NCBI GenBank assembly: GCA_903893445.1
Contig: CAITMG010000030.1
Span: forward strand, 1 to 51,523
Direction of reading: 5' to 3'
Length of the DNA: 51,523 nt
From: Candidatus Uhrbacteria bacterium
GTDB taxonomy: Bacteria > Patescibacteriota > Patescibacteriia > 2-12-FULL-60-25
The notes beneath the pieces were generated by a model. That model worked only from the letters and a program-made list of their open reading frames with translations, ran no database searches and was not told the origin of the DNA. The translations under genes and the position numbers were made by a program. This document shows positions 940 through 41,998 of the stretch, in pieces (positions within the stretch are counted from its first letter, which is position 1; each line of letters begins with the position of its first letter).

Positions 940-2049
940 ATGACCGATCGACCAGGTGCCATCCCCCGCCAATTGATCGCCGAAATGGCCGAAGCTGGCT
1001 ATATCAAAGGTTCGTCTCCGGAGACGCTTCAGCCGTCGTCTTTGGACCTTCGCATTACGGATGAGGCGTATCGCATGCGCGGCTCGTATCTGCCAAAGAT
1101 CGGTGAAACGATTGAGGAGATTATCACCCGTGGCGCGCTGTACAAGCAGGACTTGAGCCGACCTCTTGAGGTCGATGGAACGTATCTCATCAAGCTCAAC
1201 GAGTCGCTCGCCTTGCCGATGGGCATTCACGCCACCGTGAGCAGTAAGTCATCGAGCGGTCGCATTAATTTGCGTACGCGACTGTTAGCGGATCGTGTCC
1301 CGCGTTTTGATAGCGTCCCGCGCGGATATACCGGATCGTTATGGATCGAGATCATGCCAAAATCGTTTCCGGTTTTATTGCATCCAAATGATCGATTAAA
1401 TCAGATGCGATTTTTTCATGGTGATGCCGAGCTTTCGAGTCTTGAGCATCGCATCGCGTTTGATAAATTTCGCCTCCTTCGCAACGCGGATGGTTCCGCG
1501 GTTCCGGCAAGCGACAACGTTGTGAGCAACGGCGTCACGATGACGGTGGATTTAGCGAGCACGGACATTATTGGCTGGCGCGCCACGAGCGGCGGATGGA
1601 ATGTGCTCGATACCGCAAAATACGATCATGATCCGCGCGACTTTTTTGAACCCATCACGCAACCAAAAAGCGGCGAACTTGTTTTGCGTCATGGGTCGTT
1701 TTACATCCTTGTCACCAAGGAACGCATCATGATTCCGCCAAATTACGCCGCAGAGATGGCGGCGTATGATCCGACCAAGGGTGAGTTTCGATCACACTAT
1801 GCGGGATTTTTTGACCCGGGTTTTGGATGGGCAGAGAAAGATGAAGACCGAGGCTGGCAAGCCGTGCTCGAAGTCTCTATGCACGGACATGACTTTATCC
1901 TGCGTGATGGTCAGCCGATTTGTTTGATGGCTTTTGAAAAACTCCTCCTCAAGCCAGACATGCTCTACGGACGTGACATTAAATCCAACTACGGCGGACA
2001 GTCTGGACCAAGACTGGCAAAGTGGTTTAAGACGAAAAGTAGCTCGTAG
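940..2049 (+). CDS. dcd: 2'-deoxycytidine 5'-triphosphate deaminase, long (about 370 aa) DCD family
   Basis: 369 aa. The N-terminal ..LQPSSLDLRI..AYRMRGSYLP.. and ..SSKSSSGRINL.. segments match my memory of the long DCD family (Pfam DCD). The operon context is dTTP synthesis. Confidence 0.85.
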   Translation: MTDRPGAIPRQLIAEMAEAGYIKGSSPETLQPSSLDLRITDEAYRMRGSYLPKIGETIEEIITRGALYKQDLSRPLEVDGTYLIKLNESLALPMGIHATVSSKSSSGRINLRTRLLADRVPRFDSVPRGYTGSLWIEIMPKSFPVLLHPNDRLNQMRFFHGDAELSSLEHRIAFDKFRLLRNADGSAVPASDNVVSNGVTMTVDLASTDIIGWRATSGGWNVLDTAKYDHDPRDFFEPITQPKSGELVLRHGSFYILVTKERIMIPPNYAAEMAAYDPTKGEFRSHYAGFFDPGFGWAEKDEDRGWQAVLEVSMHGHDFILRDGQPICLMAFEKLLLKPDMLYGRDIKSNYGGQSGPRLAKWFKTKSSS

Positions 2050-2067
2050 TTAGTAGCTAGTAGCTAG
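2041..2067. repeat. GTAGCT-type repeat, left arm flanking the four-helix-bundle gene
   Basis: agctcgtagttagtagctagtagctag overlaps the dcd stop codon and is the reverse-complement pattern of 2474-2510. Confidence 0.8.
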
Positions 2068-2119
2068 ATGGTTGACGAGTGCAGAGATACCTGGCAGCTG
2101 TAGATGCATGGAGCAGCGA

Positions 2120-2485
2120 ATGAAAATCAAAAACTTTACTGACTTGTTCGTTTGGAACGAAGGGCATCAATTCGTCTTAAGTCTCTATCGACTGACAAAA
2201 TCTTTCCCAAGCGACGAGCAGTTCTCACTCACAAACCAGATGAGACGTGCGGCAGTATCAATTACTTCAAATATCGCAGAAGGGTTCGGGCGAAGATCCT
2301 ATGCTGAAAAAAGACAGTTTTATAACATCGCCTCTGGTTCAATCACGGAAATACAGAGTCAACTTTACCTCGCACGAGATCTTGGGTATTGTCCTACAGA
2401 CACATGGGATCAATTGAATAGTAAATCGGAATTTGTTTACAAACTTCTAAACGCTCTCATCGCCTCACTCCCCAGCTCCCGCTAG
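2120..2485 (+). CDS. Four-helix-bundle protein (23S rRNA intervening-sequence protein / Avd-like family)
   Basis: MKIKNFTDLFVWNEGHQFVLSLYRLTKSFP..EQFSLTNQMRRAAVSITSNIAEGFGRRS..F..IASGSITEIQSQLYLA is the classic signature of this family. The start was trimmed to the ATG at 2120. Confidence 0.9.
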   Translation: MKIKNFTDLFVWNEGHQFVLSLYRLTKSFPSDEQFSLTNQMRRAAVSITSNIAEGFGRRSYAEKRQFYNIASGSITEIQSQLYLARDLGYCPTDTWDQLNSKSEFVYKLLNALIASLPSSR

Positions 2486-2510
2486 CTACCAGCTACAAGC
2501 TACCAGCTAC
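2474..2510. repeat. GTAGCT-type repeat, right arm (AGCTAC orientation)
   Basis: cagctcccgctagctaccagctacaagctaccagctac lies directly after the ORF and ends at the next gene start. Confidence 0.8.
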
Positions 2511-2525
2511 TTGATTACCTCCCCT

Positions 2526-3077
2526 ATGCCCAAACATATTATCGGACTCGTTGGTCGCCAGGGTTCCGGAAAAGGGACAGTCGCAAAAATTCTTCAAGAG
2601 AAGTACGGCGCTGTCCTTTTTCGTTTTAGCGCCGTGCTCGGAGATATTCTCGATCGCGTTGCCGTGGAACGAACGCGTGAAAATTTAATTAAAATCTCTG
2701 AAGCGCTTCGTGGCTCGTTCGGCGAAGACGTTCTCGCCTTTGCGATTGAAAAGGACGCCGCCTCCACGGATGCAGACATCGTGGTGATTGATGGGATTCG
2801 ACGATTGGAAGACATCGTTGCCTTGGAACCACTGGAACAATTCACGCTCGTCAGTGTCCACGCACCAGCCGAACTGCGATTCCAACGCGTTCAAGGACGA
2901 TCGGAAAAACCAGGCGAATCCGGCGTCAGTTTTGAAGATTTTTTGAAGGTCGAAGATACCGCACCGACGGAAATCACAATCCCGATGGTCGAAGAACGCG
3001 CCATGATCACGATCAATAACGATGGATCACTCGAACAATTGCAAGATCAAATCTCAACCCTCATGAACGACTTATGA
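2526..3077 (+). CDS. P-loop nucleoside/nucleotide kinase-like protein (AAA/dNMP-kinase fold)
   Basis: Walker A GRQGSGKGT near the N-terminus, about 180 aa. It sits between dcd and thyX-like, and its stop overlaps the next ATG (ATGA). The substrate is unknown. Confidence 0.65.
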   Translation: MPKHIIGLVGRQGSGKGTVAKILQEKYGAVLFRFSAVLGDILDRVAVERTRENLIKISEALRGSFGEDVLAFAIEKDAASTDADIVVIDGIRRLEDIVALEPLEQFTLVSVHAPAELRFQRVQGRSEKPGESGVSFEDFLKVEDTAPTEITIPMVEERAMITINNDGSLEQLQDQISTLMNDL

Positions 3078-4381
3078 CACACGAACCATTGGTTATCATC
3101 GAAGACTCGTTGCCGCCGGAGAGTATCGCGATGGTCGCGGCACTCTATTCCCGCGATCCAAAAAGCGTGACCGAGCATCTCAAAAAAGTTGCGGAGGTCG
3201 GGGCGGATAAGTTTATGGCCAACTACTACGTTGGCTATGGTCATGCGTCGATCGGTGACTGCGGATCCACAAGCATTTTCGTCGAACAAATCAGCATGCT
3301 TGCGGCCAAGGCGATTCAAGACTGGTCACTCTATAGCGGACAGGAAGCGTCTACGCGCTATATTGATTTTTCCTCACAGCCGATGATCGATCCGACAGAT
3401 TCGGACGCGGGAAAAGCGATTCAGGAAAAGTGGCGTGCATTTTATGTGACGTATCTCCCACGCATTCAGGAACACGTCGCATCACTTTACCCGCGACGCG
3501 ACGGTGAGGACGAAAAAGTCTACGCCAAGGCCGTGAAGGCACGCGCGTTTGATATCATGCGCGGCTTTTTGCCAGCTGGTGCCGCAACGCTTGTTGCCTG
3601 GCACACCAACCTTCGCCAAGCCGCGGACAAAACACAGCTCTTACGTCATCATCCCCTGCCGGAAATTCGCGCGATCGGTGAAAACGTTTTGACGGCTTTG
3701 CAGACACGCTATCCGAATAGCTTTAGTCATCAACGTTTTGAGAACACGGAAAATTATATTGAATCGTATTCCGCGGCGTTCACCTATCTTGATCCAGAGG
3801 CGCATCCGGAAAAACCTGTTTTAACAACAACGATTCAAAACGGCGATCTCGAAGCGTACTCCGATCTGTTGCAGAATCGTCCGATGAAAACCGGCCTCCC
3901 AACATTCTTGAATGAACTTGGTCAGTGTACGTTTGAATTCTTGCTCGACTTTGGGTCGTTTCGCGATTTGCAGCGTCATCGGAATGGCGTGTGCCGCATG
4001 CCGCTTTTGTCGACGCGATGGGGATTCCATCCATGGTATCTCGCGCAATTGCCGGAAGACGTTCGTGCCGCAGCAGAGACACTTCTTGCCGAGCAAAGCG
4101 CTGCGATCGCGGCACTCAACCTTTCGCCAGAAGTGCAACAATATTTTATCGCCATGGGATATCGCGTGCCGTGCCGCGTGACGTACGGACTCATGCCGAC
4201 CGTGTACACGATCGAGCTCCGCTCTGGAAAAATGGTGCACCCAACGTTGCGCAGTCTCGTGCATGACATGGTGCGTGAGATGCAAGCCAAACTCCCGCTC
4301 GTCAAACTGCATGTGGATATGGATTTGGATGACTGGGATGTTCGACGCGGGACGCACGACATCATCAAAAAAGACGCCTAA
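3074..4381 (+). CDS. ThyX-like FAD-dependent thymidylate synthase, long divergent form
   Basis: 435 aa with ..AALYSRDPKS.. and ..FRDLQRHRNG.. (RHR core). It is flanked by dcd and tmk. The serine spacing after RHR is non-canonical. Confidence 0.6.
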   Translation: MTHEPLVIIEDSLPPESIAMVAALYSRDPKSVTEHLKKVAEVGADKFMANYYVGYGHASIGDCGSTSIFVEQISMLAAKAIQDWSLYSGQEASTRYIDFSSQPMIDPTDSDAGKAIQEKWRAFYVTYLPRIQEHVASLYPRRDGEDEKVYAKAVKARAFDIMRGFLPAGAATLVAWHTNLRQAADKTQLLRHHPLPEIRAIGENVLTALQTRYPNSFSHQRFENTENYIESYSAAFTYLDPEAHPEKPVLTTTIQNGDLEAYSDLLQNRPMKTGLPTFLNELGQCTFEFLLDFGSFRDLQRHRNGVCRMPLLSTRWGFHPWYLAQLPEDVRAAAETLLAEQSAAIAALNLSPEVQQYFIAMGYRVPCRVTYGLMPTVYTIELRSGKMVHPTLRSLVHDMVREMQAKLPLVKLHVDMDLDDWDVRRGTHDIIKKDA

Positions 4382-4385
4382 CGGT

Positions 4386-5066
4386 ATGCCGTTCATTGTC
4401 ATTGACGGAACCGACGGCTCAGGAAAAGGCACACAAACAAAATTGCTCGTTGAACGGCTTCAACGCGAAGGTCGAACCGTGGAACAGCTCAGCTTTCCGC
4501 GGTATGGCAATCCGAGTGCACATTTTGTTGAACAGTATTTGAATGGACGGTATGGGACAGGGATGGATGTTGGCCCGCACCGATCGTCACTCTTTTACGC
4601 ACTGGATCGATTTGACGCGGCCGCGGGTATTCGAGCGGCGCTTGCCGCTGGAACTGTTGTGATCTCGGATCGCTATGTATCCGCCAACAAGGGACACCAG
4701 ATGGGAAAAATCACCGACCCCGCAGAGCGACAAGCGTTTCTCGATTGGATTAATGATCTGGAATATCGTGTGCTTGGGATTCCAAAACCAGATCTGACGA
4801 TTCTCCTCCACATGCCGTCGGAAATCGCGTATGAACTGATTGCAAAAAAAGATGACCGCGGATATTTGAACGGCAAAAAACGCGACATCCACGAAGCAGA
4901 CCCAGGACATCTCAAAGCTGCGGAACAGGCCTATCTCGAGATTCCATCGATGGACGTGGTTGAAAACTGGGAAGTTGTTTCCTGCATGGATGGTGGGAAT
5001 CTCATGAGCATTGAGACGATTCACGAAAAACTGTGGCAGCGCATCCTTCCACTCCTCAACGCGTAA
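4386..5066 (+). CDS. tmk: dTMP (thymidylate) kinase
   Basis: MPFIVIDGTDGSGKGTQTKLL..SFPRYG..DRY.. signature. The start was trimmed to the ATG at 4386, just after the thyX-like stop. Confidence 0.9.
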   Translation: MPFIVIDGTDGSGKGTQTKLLVERLQREGRTVEQLSFPRYGNPSAHFVEQYLNGRYGTGMDVGPHRSSLFYALDRFDAAAGIRAALAAGTVVISDRYVSANKGHQMGKITDPAERQAFLDWINDLEYRVLGIPKPDLTILLHMPSEIAYELIAKKDDRGYLNGKKRDIHEADPGHLKAAEQAYLEIPSMDVVENWEVVSCMDGGNLMSIETIHEKLWQRILPLLNA

Positions 5067-16753: not shown

Positions 16754-16768
16754 AGTGAGGAGACAAGA

Positions 16769-16795
16769 GTAGCTCGTAGCTGGTAGCTCGTAGCT
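16769..16795. repeat. GTAGCT-type tandem repeat, solo copy
   Basis: gtagctcgtagct-g-gtagctcgtagct lies 16 nt upstream of the gap start. Same word family as 2041-2067 and 2474-2510. Confidence 0.75.
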
Positions 16796-16844
16796 TGGAA
16801 GCGAATAAATGAAAAGACAACAAAAGGATAACGCATCCGCATGA

Positions 16845-37333: not shown

Positions 37334-37354
37334 ATTTTTTGGGTAAAGGACAAA

Positions 37355-37410
37355 GGCTGTAGGCGGTAGGCAGTAGCTTTTCGAGCTACAACCTACTGCC
37401 TACTGCCTCG
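37355..37410. repeat. GTAGGC/GTAGCT-type long imperfect hairpin between rpsB and tsf
   Basis: ggctgtaggcggtaggcagtagc-ttttcga-gctacaacctactgcctactgcc. It shares aggcggtaggca and taggcagtagct words with 41605-41635. Confidence 0.75.
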
Positions 37411-40511: not shown

Positions 40512-41600
40512 TTATTCGTCGCTGGAATCGTCTTCCTCTGTGCCGCGTTTTCCGGTGCGAACGGCGGTGATCACTTCATCTAATTCTCCATCCAAAATCA
40601 ACGGAATATTGTGCCAAGAGTGCTTGATGCGATGATCTGTAATGCGATCTTGCGGATAATTGTATGTGCGAATTTTTTCGGAGCGATCACCATTGCCGAT
40701 TTGCGCGCGGCGCTCGGCGTCCAACTCGCTCCGTTTTTTTGTTTCTTCAATCTCCCACAATCGCGCGCGCAAAATTGTCATGGCGCGATCGCGATTTTGA
40801 AGCTGTGAACGTTCGTCCTGACAGTTCACCGTTGTACCCGTTGGAAGATGCGTGATACGCACTGCCGACTTGGTCGTGTTCACGCTCTGTCCACCTTTTC
40901 CCCCGGCACAAAACGTGTCGATGCGAAGATCTTTTTGCTCGATGCGAATATCCGTTTCTTCGAGTTCCGGGAGCACGGCGACGGTCGCGGTGGAGGTATG
41001 AATGCGTCCGGCCTTTTCCGTAGCTGGTACGCGTTGGACGCGGTGCACGCCCATCTCGCCTTTGAGCAGCCCATATGCGCCATCCCCCTGAATCACAAAC
41101 ACAACTTCCTTGTACCCACCGTGTTCGGACATCGAATCGGAGACGAGCGCCATCTTCCAGCCTTTGCGTTCGGCGTATCGCGTGTACATGCGCAACAAAT
41201 CACCGGCAAACAACGACGCTTCGTCACCGCCGGTGCCAGCACGGATTTCGACAATGACGTTATTGCGGTCATGCGGATCCGGTGGAACAAGCGCAACTTC
41301 AAATGCCTGCTGAGCTTCTTCCAGCTCCTTTTGGGCGGCAGGTAATTCTGCGGCGCCTAATTCTTTCATGTCTGCGTCATCTGACACAATGGCTGCCTTT
41401 GCGTCGTCATATGCGCGCAAAGCCGCGTCATAGCGATTGGCGAACTCGCTCAATTTTCGCGCATCATCATAGGCACGCGAAACATCCCGAAATTTCTTTT
41501 GGTCGGCGATGACGTCAGCACTGGAAACTTGCTGTTCCAGCTCATGGAGTTTTTTTCGTGCTTCGAGCACGGATCGTTTATAGTCGGACATATGGGACAA
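40512..41600 (-). CDS. prfA: Peptide chain release factor 1
   Basis: [10 protein letters not shown] (GGQ) motif, ..RIDTF.A.G.GGQ.. context, 362 aa. Confidence 0.95.
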
Positions 41601-41604
41601 GACA

Positions 41605-41635
41605 GGCGGTAGGCAATAGGCAGTAGCTGGTAGCT
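41605..41635. repeat. GTAGGC/GTAGCT-type repeat, solo copy
   Basis: ggcggtaggcaataggcagtagctggtagct, 5 nt upstream of the prfA start. Confidence 0.7.
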
Positions 41636-41656
41636 TGCGGCGAAAAAATTGATAAC

Positions 41657-41680: not shown

Positions 41681-41695
41681 CCTTGTTTCAAACAG

Positions 41696-41998
41696 CTACG
41701 CTTCGTTTAAAGCGGTTGGGCTCTTTTGAGACTTTTTTGCTGCCTTTTGAGCGGCGCGCTTATCTGCCTTTTCCTGCTTGGAAACGGCGGTTGTCGCTTT
41801 CGCTGCGGTGCGGCCAACAAATTTTTCGACGCGGCGGGCCGTGTCGACAATCTTTTGTTTGCCCGTGTAGAACGGATGGCACTTTGAGCAGATTTCAATA
41901 TGGATTTCCGGGATCGTTGAACCGGTCACGGCAACGTTGCCGCAAGCGCAGATGATCTTCGCGTCTGGGAAATACTTCGGATGGAGGTCGGATTTCAT
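41696..41998 (-). CDS. rpmE: 50S ribosomal protein L31 with Lys/Ala-rich C-terminal extension
   Basis: MKSDLHPKY....I.C.CG.........[18 protein letters not shown].. Confidence 0.93.

Follow-up and report, generated by a model that had tools for sequence, protein, structure and literature searches.

We found that a gene for a four-helix-bundle protein of the PF05635 family, held between two inverted arrays of tandem heptamers, occupies the junction between dcd and a kinase gene in a nucleotide operon (dcd-kinase-thyX-tmk) of Candidatus Uhrbacteria bacterium (GenBank assembly GCA_903893445.1, contig CAITMG010000030.1; the whole stretch of 51,523 nucleotides that was analysed is referred to here as the window). 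Array, gene and inverted array very probably constitute a discrete inserted cassette of conserved design. Together with the empty sites found in relatives, the locus shows that the gene-in-heptamer-hairpin module known from rRNA intervening sequences also enters ordinary operons; the class to which it belongs is widespread but has scarcely been described.

Filled and empty sites at the dcd-kinase junction

The upstream gene, dcd (940..2049, + strand), encodes a two-domain dCTP deaminase of 369 amino acids (aa) that matches Pfam DCD_N, DCD and DCD_C. Repeat and fold analyses placed the left (5') arm, AAGTAGCTCGTAGTTAGTAGCTAGTAGCTAG, at 2037..2067 (+ strand), where it comprises about four GTAGCTN heptamers in G-first orientation, and the right (3') arm, CTAGCTACCAGCTACAAGCTACCAGCTACTT, at 2482..2512 (+ strand), where about four AGCTACN heptamers form the reverse complement of the left arm. 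Both arms are period-7 arrays of 31 nucleotides (nt), 87% complementary to each other and separated by 414 nt, and the word GTAGCTNGTAGCT occurs, with at most one mismatch, 11 times in the window as compared with 0.03 occurrences expected. The dcd stop codon TAG (2047-2049) lies inside the left array, which carries TAG in all three frames, and the stop codon TAG of the cassette gene (2483-2485) lies within the first unit of the right array. The cassette gene itself (2120..2485, + strand; PF05635/TIGR02436), assigned from hidden Markov model (HMM) matches and PDB similarity, encodes 121 aa; its ATG follows the left array after a spacer of 52 nt (0-25 nt in most relatives), and an alternative ATG at 2108 would give 125 aa. 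The next gene, encoding a P-loop (d)NMP-kinase-like protein (2526..3077, + strand), was assigned from an HMM match, the starts of its orthologues and the gene order in relatives. Its ATG at 2526 is separated from the right arm by 13 nt, the orthologues begin with MPTHIIGLVG or MPKLIIGLVG, and a TTG in the kinase frame at 2511 is simply the first possible start of the open frame. The initial annotation had correctly described the dcd stop codon as embedded in a repeat whose reverse complement follows the open reading frame (ORF); its kinase start at the last base of the right arm and its ORF length of 122 aa are replaced by the values given above, and it did not include the heptamer words that we found at three more intergenic sites of the window (16769-16796, 37354-37408 and 41609-41636).

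In predicted folds of a 511-nt RNA, the arms were paired in both the minimum free energy and the centroid structures. The arm duplex had a free energy of -40.2 kcal/mol, as compared with -10.8 +/- 2.9 kcal/mol for shuffled arms, and in the ensemble of the whole transcript the mean pairing probability of the arms was 0.89, exceeding 0.5 at 28 of the 31 positions. The stem consists of 28 pairs with a 1x1 mismatch at every seventh position, giving a helix pattern of 8 bp, mismatch, 6 bp, mismatch, 6 bp, mismatch and 8 bp. The proposal in the initial annotation that the gene sits in the loop of a potential long-range stem is thus upheld, the pairing between the arms being predicted to be stable.

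Comparison with relatives revealed the same junction in an empty state. In the closest relative found (L082-L084), whose DCD is 97% identical in protein and whose flanking DNA is 86-88% identical, the gene order is rplA ... dcd-kinase-thyX-tmk, as in the window, and the kinase ATG lies 7 nt past the dcd stop codon with neither gene nor repeat in between. Alignment with L083 showed that homology stops after GTGGTTTAA and restarts at TCCYCCTATGCC, with about 487 nt (2031..2517, + strand) standing in place of about 13 nt (ATCCATGGAATAA) of this relative. The junction is also empty in relatives whose DCD is 84% (L085), 79% (L086/87) and 73% (L088/89) identical. The initial annotation had suggested such a comparison of the orthologous junction; empty sites were found in all four relatives, and in none of them did the same gene stand at the junction without repeats. 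The last dcd codons and the stop codon are supplied by the insert, from its left array, and the DCD tail accordingly reads KTKSSS* here, as compared with KSME* in the closest relative and STERV*, KV* and KQT* in relatives. In base composition, the cassette gene (G+C content 42.9%; G+C at third codon positions, GC3, 44%) differs from dcd and thyX (about 52%; GC3 about 57%). The cassette was present in four DNA sequencing runs of one lake-water study, in which no empty allele was seen; the separately assembled contigs of runs X1, X2 and X3 span at least the whole cassette without differences, and in run X4 some contigs end near the arms.

The protein, related cassettes and gene-less arrays

The cassette protein matched PF05635 with 127.4 bits (cut-off 33.8; E 3.3e-37; profile positions 2-106 of 106) and TIGR02436 with 121.7 bits (cut-off 24; E 1.5e-35). 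It carries RRAAVSITSNIAEGFGR, in agreement with the family motif S-x3-N-I-A-E-G-x2-R, a motif of the 23S_rRNA_IVP family noted in PMC3936711, and residues S47, N51, I52, A53, E54, G55, F56 and R58 are invariant in the homologue alignment. The protein is strongly conserved, with 26 invariant columns among homologues that are 54-61% identical to it, and the nearest homologue among 5.8 billion proteins has only 64% identity. Similarity was also found to the PDB entries 2gsc (9.4e-31) and 2rld, each of which contains five chains; a homopentamer was described by Lin et al. (2006), as cited in PMC4990558. Judging from its resemblance to these five-chain relatives, the cassette protein may form a pentameric ring.

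Other identities for the protein were considered and rejected. Avd, the accessory protein of diversity-generating retroelements (DGRs), belongs to the same fold superfamily, and the HMM similarity to it is weak: the scores fell below the curated cut-offs for bAvd (22.9 bits, cut-off 40; E 1.2e-4) and NF033474 (20 bits, cut-off 80), with E 6e-4 for DivGenRetAVD, and neither a reverse transcriptase nor a template/variable repeat is adjacent to the cassette. An anti-phage defence gene was rejected in that no PADLOC model matched the cassette protein at E <= 0.01. An HUH (Y1) domain was not found in the protein. Only one weak relative was found in viral contigs, and nothing there points to a phage vector.

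With a profile built from 26 homologues, 595 relatives were detected among contigs representing one genome per species, from which the 80 best loci were retained. Most belong to Patescibacteria, with others from Chloroflexota (L064 and L081), one from Bacteroidota, one from Verrucomicrobiota and one from a SAR324 metagenome-assembled genome (MAG). Complementary arms were found within 130-150 nt on each side of the gene in all 79 loci having both flanks, with z >= 6 in 65 of them, and an inverted-repeat score of at least 30 was reached by 74 of 78 cassette genes versus 12 of 260 other genes of the same loci. Among the arrays detected in 396 kb, a period of 7 predominated (170 arrays), followed by periods of 6 (56) and 8 (19). 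The heptamer word is specific to the genome (for example, GAATTAN, GTATTTN, GATTTAN, GTAGTAN and AGTAAGG, besides others), and its polarity is constant, with the G-containing word upstream and its complement downstream; G exceeds C in the left arm of 77 of the 80 loci. The median number of units per arm is 4.4 (interquartile range 3.9-5.0). At the variable seventh position, 63% of the opposed bases form Watson-Crick pairs versus 28% expected if the arms were independent, an excess that derives in part from the choice of the best register. Because 7 is not a multiple of 3, an array containing TAG presents a stop codon in all three frames; left arms with stops in all three frames were found in 41% of the loci versus 21% of shuffles, a modest trend.

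In 55 of 73 loci, the genes on both sides have the same orientation as the cassette. The spacer is filled by the cassette, with an upstream stop codon that lies about 20 nt or less from the left arm and a downstream start that mostly comes 1-20 nt past the right arm. Cassettes of this type occur in unrelated operons, including cas, suf and atp operons, among others. No rRNA gene was found in any of the 80 related loci, and an operon junction is the rule in this clade. Pairs of inverted arrays without a gene are also present in related loci L022, L031, L035 and L059, and in L013 a further pair of inverted arrays encloses an ORF of 82 aa that had no Pfam match. No candidate for an enzyme gene linked to any of the 80 loci was found. 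Two of the loci, L014 and L043, come from one Uhrbacteria MAG (JACQXU01), which contains two cassettes with the words GAAGNAA and GTAGTAN, respectively; GTAGTAN units form another array at a distance of 2 kb from the first cassette (L014 4585-4617). A scan of public metagenome contigs for three GTAGCTN units returned 80 loci of very mixed G+C content, of which three have a nearby gene of this clade, and did not recover relatives of this genome. The word itself is not diagnostic.

The family is also present on plasmids of cultured cyanobacteria and Bacteroidota. Inverted heptamer arms were found in Nostoc punctiforme pNPUN01 and Nostoc sp. C052 (TCAGGAG units, differing in number between the two), in Riemerella (GGTTYAA units) and in Picosynechococcus PCC 7003, in which GGAGATA units enclose a gene that separates cmr2 from cmr3 in a type III-B CRISPR operon (L214 1100-1600). 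This last case provides a second empty site, as the orthologous cmr2 and cmr3 on plasmid pAQ6 of Picosynechococcus PCC 7002 are 11 nt apart, with no cassette (L219 1170-1300). In PCC 7003, the cmr2 stop codon lies within the left array and the cmr3 ATG one base past the right arm. The dcd-kinase and cmr2-cmr3 pairs therefore represent two independent insertions in distant phyla with a common junction anatomy. The present analysis adds these filled/empty pairs in two lineages, and since one of them involves transformable model strains, questions of processing and binding become directly testable in PCC 7003/PCC 7002. A further family member lies between cas6 and cas4 on plasmid pPg_01 of Pseudanabaena galeata (L216 1090-1670).

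The words of the cassette also form arrays without a gene elsewhere in the window. At the rpsB-tsf junction (37354..37408, - strand), three GTAGGCN/GTAGCTN units, a 5-nt loop and the complement form a gene-less hairpin of -37.0 kcal/mol, with a 1x1 mismatch every 7 nt and a cassette-like polarity relative to transcription. This hairpin is absent in L210 and L211 (protein S2 94% and 86% identical, respectively), and their ordinary spacers of 31 and about 37 nt indicate that the gene-less hairpin is itself an insert. Two single arrays of the C-form are also present on the - strand, at distances of a few nucleotides to 15 nt from the ATG that follows. One, (AGCTACN)4 at 16769..16796, ends 15 nt before the ATG of the downstream gene; upstream of this array are a terminator-like hairpin and a degenerate one-unit remnant of the G-form. 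The other, at 41609..41636, consists of two AGCTACN and two GCCTAYN units just upstream of prfA; the stop codon TAG of rpmE lies within a lone GTAGCTG unit (41690-41700), just as the dcd stop codon belongs to a GTAGTTA unit (2044-2049), and a terminator-like hairpin is located between the lone unit and the prfA array. Four contigs are identical at the rpmE-prfA array, showing no population polymorphism. Further AGCTACN array copies of 33-36 nt, with 2 differences, occur in other equal-depth contigs of runs X1-X3, and one more AGCTACN array lies about 3 kb upstream of the window start on the same run contig. An origin of the gene-less arrays as deletion derivatives of the cassette gained no support, their internal sequences having no similarity, by eye, to the cassette ends. 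Hairpins in this genome that share the words but lack the gene probably represent related inserts. That such a hairpin is also an insertion, and that gene-less arrays share the cassette word in this genome, are likewise additions of the present analysis.

Proposed processing and alternative explanations

The best explanation of these data, which taken as a whole we consider to have an even chance of being right, is the following. A cassette of about 480 bp, composed of an array, a PF05635 gene and an inverted array, was inserted in the short dcd-kinase spacer in the lineage of this genome. No promoter-like or terminator-like motif was found in the cassette (2030-2520 was scanned for terminators); having no such signals of its own, it probably shares the dcd-kinase-thyX-tmk transcript. 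The right arm was specifically rejected as an intrinsic terminator, as it is followed by TTGATTACC, without a U tract. In the operon RNA the arms would pair, leaving the gene in the loop, and RNase III would cut the stem, by analogy with the 23S rRNA intervening sequences (IVSs) that bear genes of this family; cleavage would set the cassette RNA free, and each of the two flanking cistrons would end up on an RNA of its own that can still be translated. We judge the chance that the arms act in this way, as an RNA stem cut by a double-stranded RNA nuclease such as RNase III, to be slightly below even. Cutting without re-joining would be harmless both between cistrons and in surface helices of rRNA, and this harmlessness would explain why cistron boundaries and rRNA surface helices are the sites that are occupied.

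Intervening sequences in rRNA have been known since 1990, and ORF-bearing IVSs of 23S rRNA were reportedly the subject of work by Ralph and McClelland in 1993; we know of no explanation so far for their origin, their mobility or the role of their ORFs. In Coxiella, the 23S rRNA IVS has a 28-bp terminal stem and, ahead of the S23p ATG, three or four GACAGAT heptamers in tandem (Warrier et al. 2016, PMC4990558), and RNase III cuts it at the first heptamer (PMC4990558). The cassette resembles the ORF-bearing IVSs (Coxiella burnetii helix 45, Leptospira) in that a protein of the same family is encoded in the loop of a stem with terminal inverted repeats of about 28-31 bp, and its presence among relatives is similarly sporadic; with the Coxiella IVS it further shares a 5' arm of three or four tandem G-first heptamers before the ORF and a total length of about 430-480 nt. 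However, it lies at an mRNA cistron junction rather than in an rRNA helix, RNase III excision has been shown for the IVS and is only predicted for the cassette, and the ORF of this clade is strongly conserved, whereas that of Coxiella is decaying and probably untranslated. The locus thus has every structural characteristic of an IVS except the defining one, location in rRNA. The initial annotation had suggested an IVS-like mobile cassette that settled in an operon. The insertion into an operon is borne out by the four empty relatives and the likeness to an IVS by the anatomy, but its implication that rRNA is the usual home does not hold in this clade, with none of 80 related loci in rRNA and 55 of 73 between co-oriented protein genes. 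A few such ORFs have been reported in rRNA insertions of bacteria of the candidate phyla radiation (PMC11270868).

Several observations weigh against this explanation. The statistics on related loci describe the closest relatives only and not the whole family. At the two mapped junctions (dcd-kinase and cmr2-cmr3), neither target-site duplication nor microhomology was seen; there is no transposase, the only ORF of the cassette being that of the 121-aa bundle protein, and no second identical copy showing movement was found. In Pseudanabaena, the arrays are direct and non-pairing, with about 15 AAAGCTA units upstream and about 10 AAAGCCA units downstream, and the arrays of a copy on the gamma plasmid of Nostoc PCC 7120 do not pair either; what stays constant may therefore be the array and not the stem. 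Among the arm mismatches of related loci no excess of G.U was detected (57 G.U versus 94 A.C); accordingly there is no signature of selection on the sense RNA specifically, and arm complementarity might just as well have a role in DNA or simply follow from the way in which the arms originate. In addition, rnc was not found within the window, and the sequencing runs that contain the window sequence are the four DNA runs of the lake-water study only; for two related MAG loci, a search likewise found no RNA run.

The main rival is a protein-repeat system, in which the pentamer would recognise tandem heptamers, as RNA or DNA, at about one unit per subunit; the adjacent arrays would be its own putative binding sites, for autoregulation or array propagation, the gene-less arrays further targets, and the complementarity secondary. 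We regard it as rather unlikely, though several data are consistent with it, namely the median of 4.4 units per arm alongside the five chains in 2gsc and 2rld, the arrays of the same word just upstream of the starts of three other genes in the window, and the direct arrays, unable to pair, that surround the gene in some cyanobacterial copies. The related protein Avd binds RNA together with a reverse transcriptase in DGRs, which also counts in favour of such a system. Intergenic heptamer repeats are present in unexplained excess in bacterial genomes. Also in line with a protein-repeat system, the organism from which 2gsc derives, Xanthomonas, carries about 185 arrays of the GGGAATC type, most of which have four units and which frequently form inverted pairs (PMC4692102); for Xanthomonas and Nostoc, such intergenic arrays were described, including 70-75 inverted pairs in Xanthomonas, with no gene family named (PMC4692102), and forward TAACTGA arrays are known to precede start codons in Beggiatoaceae and cyanobacteria (PMC4679880). 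Like these arrays and the STRR repeats of cyanobacteria, the arrays of the cassette have 7-nt units, about four per array, and lie between co-oriented genes, often as inverted pairs or just upstream of starts, with genome-specific words and variation in length between strains; unlike them, they serve as arms of a gene cassette, and one pair that lacks a gene is here demonstrated to be an insertion. Recognition by the protein would nevertheless not need the unit-by-unit complementarity of the arms, variable position included; it also fits poorly with the 77 of 80 GTAGCTN metagenome loci that have no nearby gene of this clade and with the number of units, which varies among strains (Nostoc C052 versus N. 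punctiforme, and Coxiella strains).

An element acting as a DNA hairpin or cruciform, substrate of a recombinase or transposase encoded elsewhere, with the gene as cargo or marker of a 'master' copy, is a less probable alternative, for which the ends of IS200/IS605, integron attC sites and the repetitive extragenic palindromes (REP, REPIN) with their RAYT transposases may serve as models. The gene-bearing cassette and the gene-less hairpin are both insertions absent from relatives, word families are common to sites within a genome, and the arms lack an RNA-specific wobble signature, all of which would suit such an element. Moreover, a gene between inverted copies of a dispersed repeat is the known layout of REPIN/RAYT, and the cassette resembles both REP/REPIN-RAYT and MITEs, or miniature inverted-repeat transposable elements, with their parent transposons in that its gene lies between inverted copies of a lineage-specific repeat that is dispersed without the gene in the same genome. 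It differs from both in that the enclosed protein is a helical bundle of 120 aa without a nuclease or transposase fold, the arms are tandem heptamers instead of a single palindrome, and there is no target duplication. Assignment to the transposon/MITE class was likewise rejected, for the inverted ends are accompanied by neither target-site duplication nor transposase. Against a DNA element stand the failure to find a candidate enzyme linked to any of the 80 loci, the absence, at both mapped junctions, of a duplicated target or a conserved target motif, and an orientation tied to the direction of host transcription (co-orientation in 55 of 73 loci, and the G-first arm on the upstream side in 77 of 80), for which a pure DNA element would have no need.

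It is improbable that the cassette is a domesticated module, that is, a stem-loop retained by the host as an internal element for processing or stability, by which the ratio of dcd to kinase-thyX-tmk expression is set, and whose protein serves a host function. The conservation of the protein (26 invariant columns at 54-61% identity), the placement of the cassette exactly between cistrons without damage to either and its fixation in all four lake samples could be read in this way, but the same operon runs without the cassette in four relatives, cassettes of the same type lie in unrelated operons such as cas, suf and atp, and the base composition of the cassette is foreign. A chance repeat or an assembly artefact is scarcely credible, for although repeats can break or mis-join short-read assemblies and some X4 contigs end near the arms, the X1, X2 and X3 contigs were assembled separately and agree across the cassette, 11 word matches stand against 0.03 expected, and the same design is found in complete genomes of cultured strains.

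On a more tentative view, with odds that we consider to be well short of even, PF05635 pentamers and tandem-heptamer arrays would be the two halves of a single widespread system. The gene would move together with an inverted pair of its own arrays, as a minimal cassette, and would settle where breaks in RNA are harmless, at cistron junctions and in rRNA surface helices; it would seed hairpins without the gene and single arrays of its word throughout the genome, which the protein would recognise. If this were true, the rRNA IVSs and the excess of intergenic heptamer repeats would be by-products of one system. Genes of the 23S_rRNA_IVP family inside cas operons have been interpreted as possibly Cas-associated (Zhang and Ye 2013, PMC3936711), and members of the same family are wedged between cas genes, as between cmr2 and cmr3, in PCC 7003 and also in Pseudanabaena; unlike that interpretation, comparison of PCC 7003 with PCC 7002 shows that the gene between cmr2 and cmr3 is an insert with heptamer arms. 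Three separately published observations, the heptamers of the Coxiella IVS, the inverted arrays of Xanthomonas and Nostoc, and the IVP genes in cas operons, therefore look like one phenomenon; no paper joining them was found in a literature search that covered few subscription journals. For annotation, a 'four helix bundle protein' in a cas, suf or nucleotide operon should be taken as an insert and not as a component of the pathway.

Other features of the operon and its relatives

The sequences before several start codons were C/U-rich, reading CCTCCCCT-ATG, TCTCCTCACT-ATG and TTGTCCCAT-ATG, with no purine-rich Shine-Dalgarno sequence; these leaders are located at positions 2513-2525, 16754-16768, 37334-37353 and 41593-41608 of the window. 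Similar leaders (TCCTCCT-ATG) were observed in relatives, suggesting that this lineage may initiate translation without a canonical Shine-Dalgarno sequence.

Differences among relatives were also observed in the genes around the dcd-kinase junction. In the rplA-dcd interval, a DUF3228 gene is annotated in L083 and L084 (L082-L084 2759-3385), whereas the window has an unrelated-looking ORF of 229 aa (157-846), indicating that the junction upstream of dcd is variable too. Downstream, the kinase gene is followed by thyX (3074-4381) and tmk (4383-5066). The slot for thymidylate synthase is occupied by a long ThyX (435 aa) in the window and in the relative with 97% DCD identity, and by ThyA in the relatives with 84%, 79% and 73% identity (L085 2442-3783, L086 5143-6488 and L088 5229-5776, respectively), followed by DHFR in the 84% and 79% relatives. 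The pattern resembles a replacement of one type of thymidylate synthase by a non-orthologous one within a conserved dcd-kinase-X-tmk operon.

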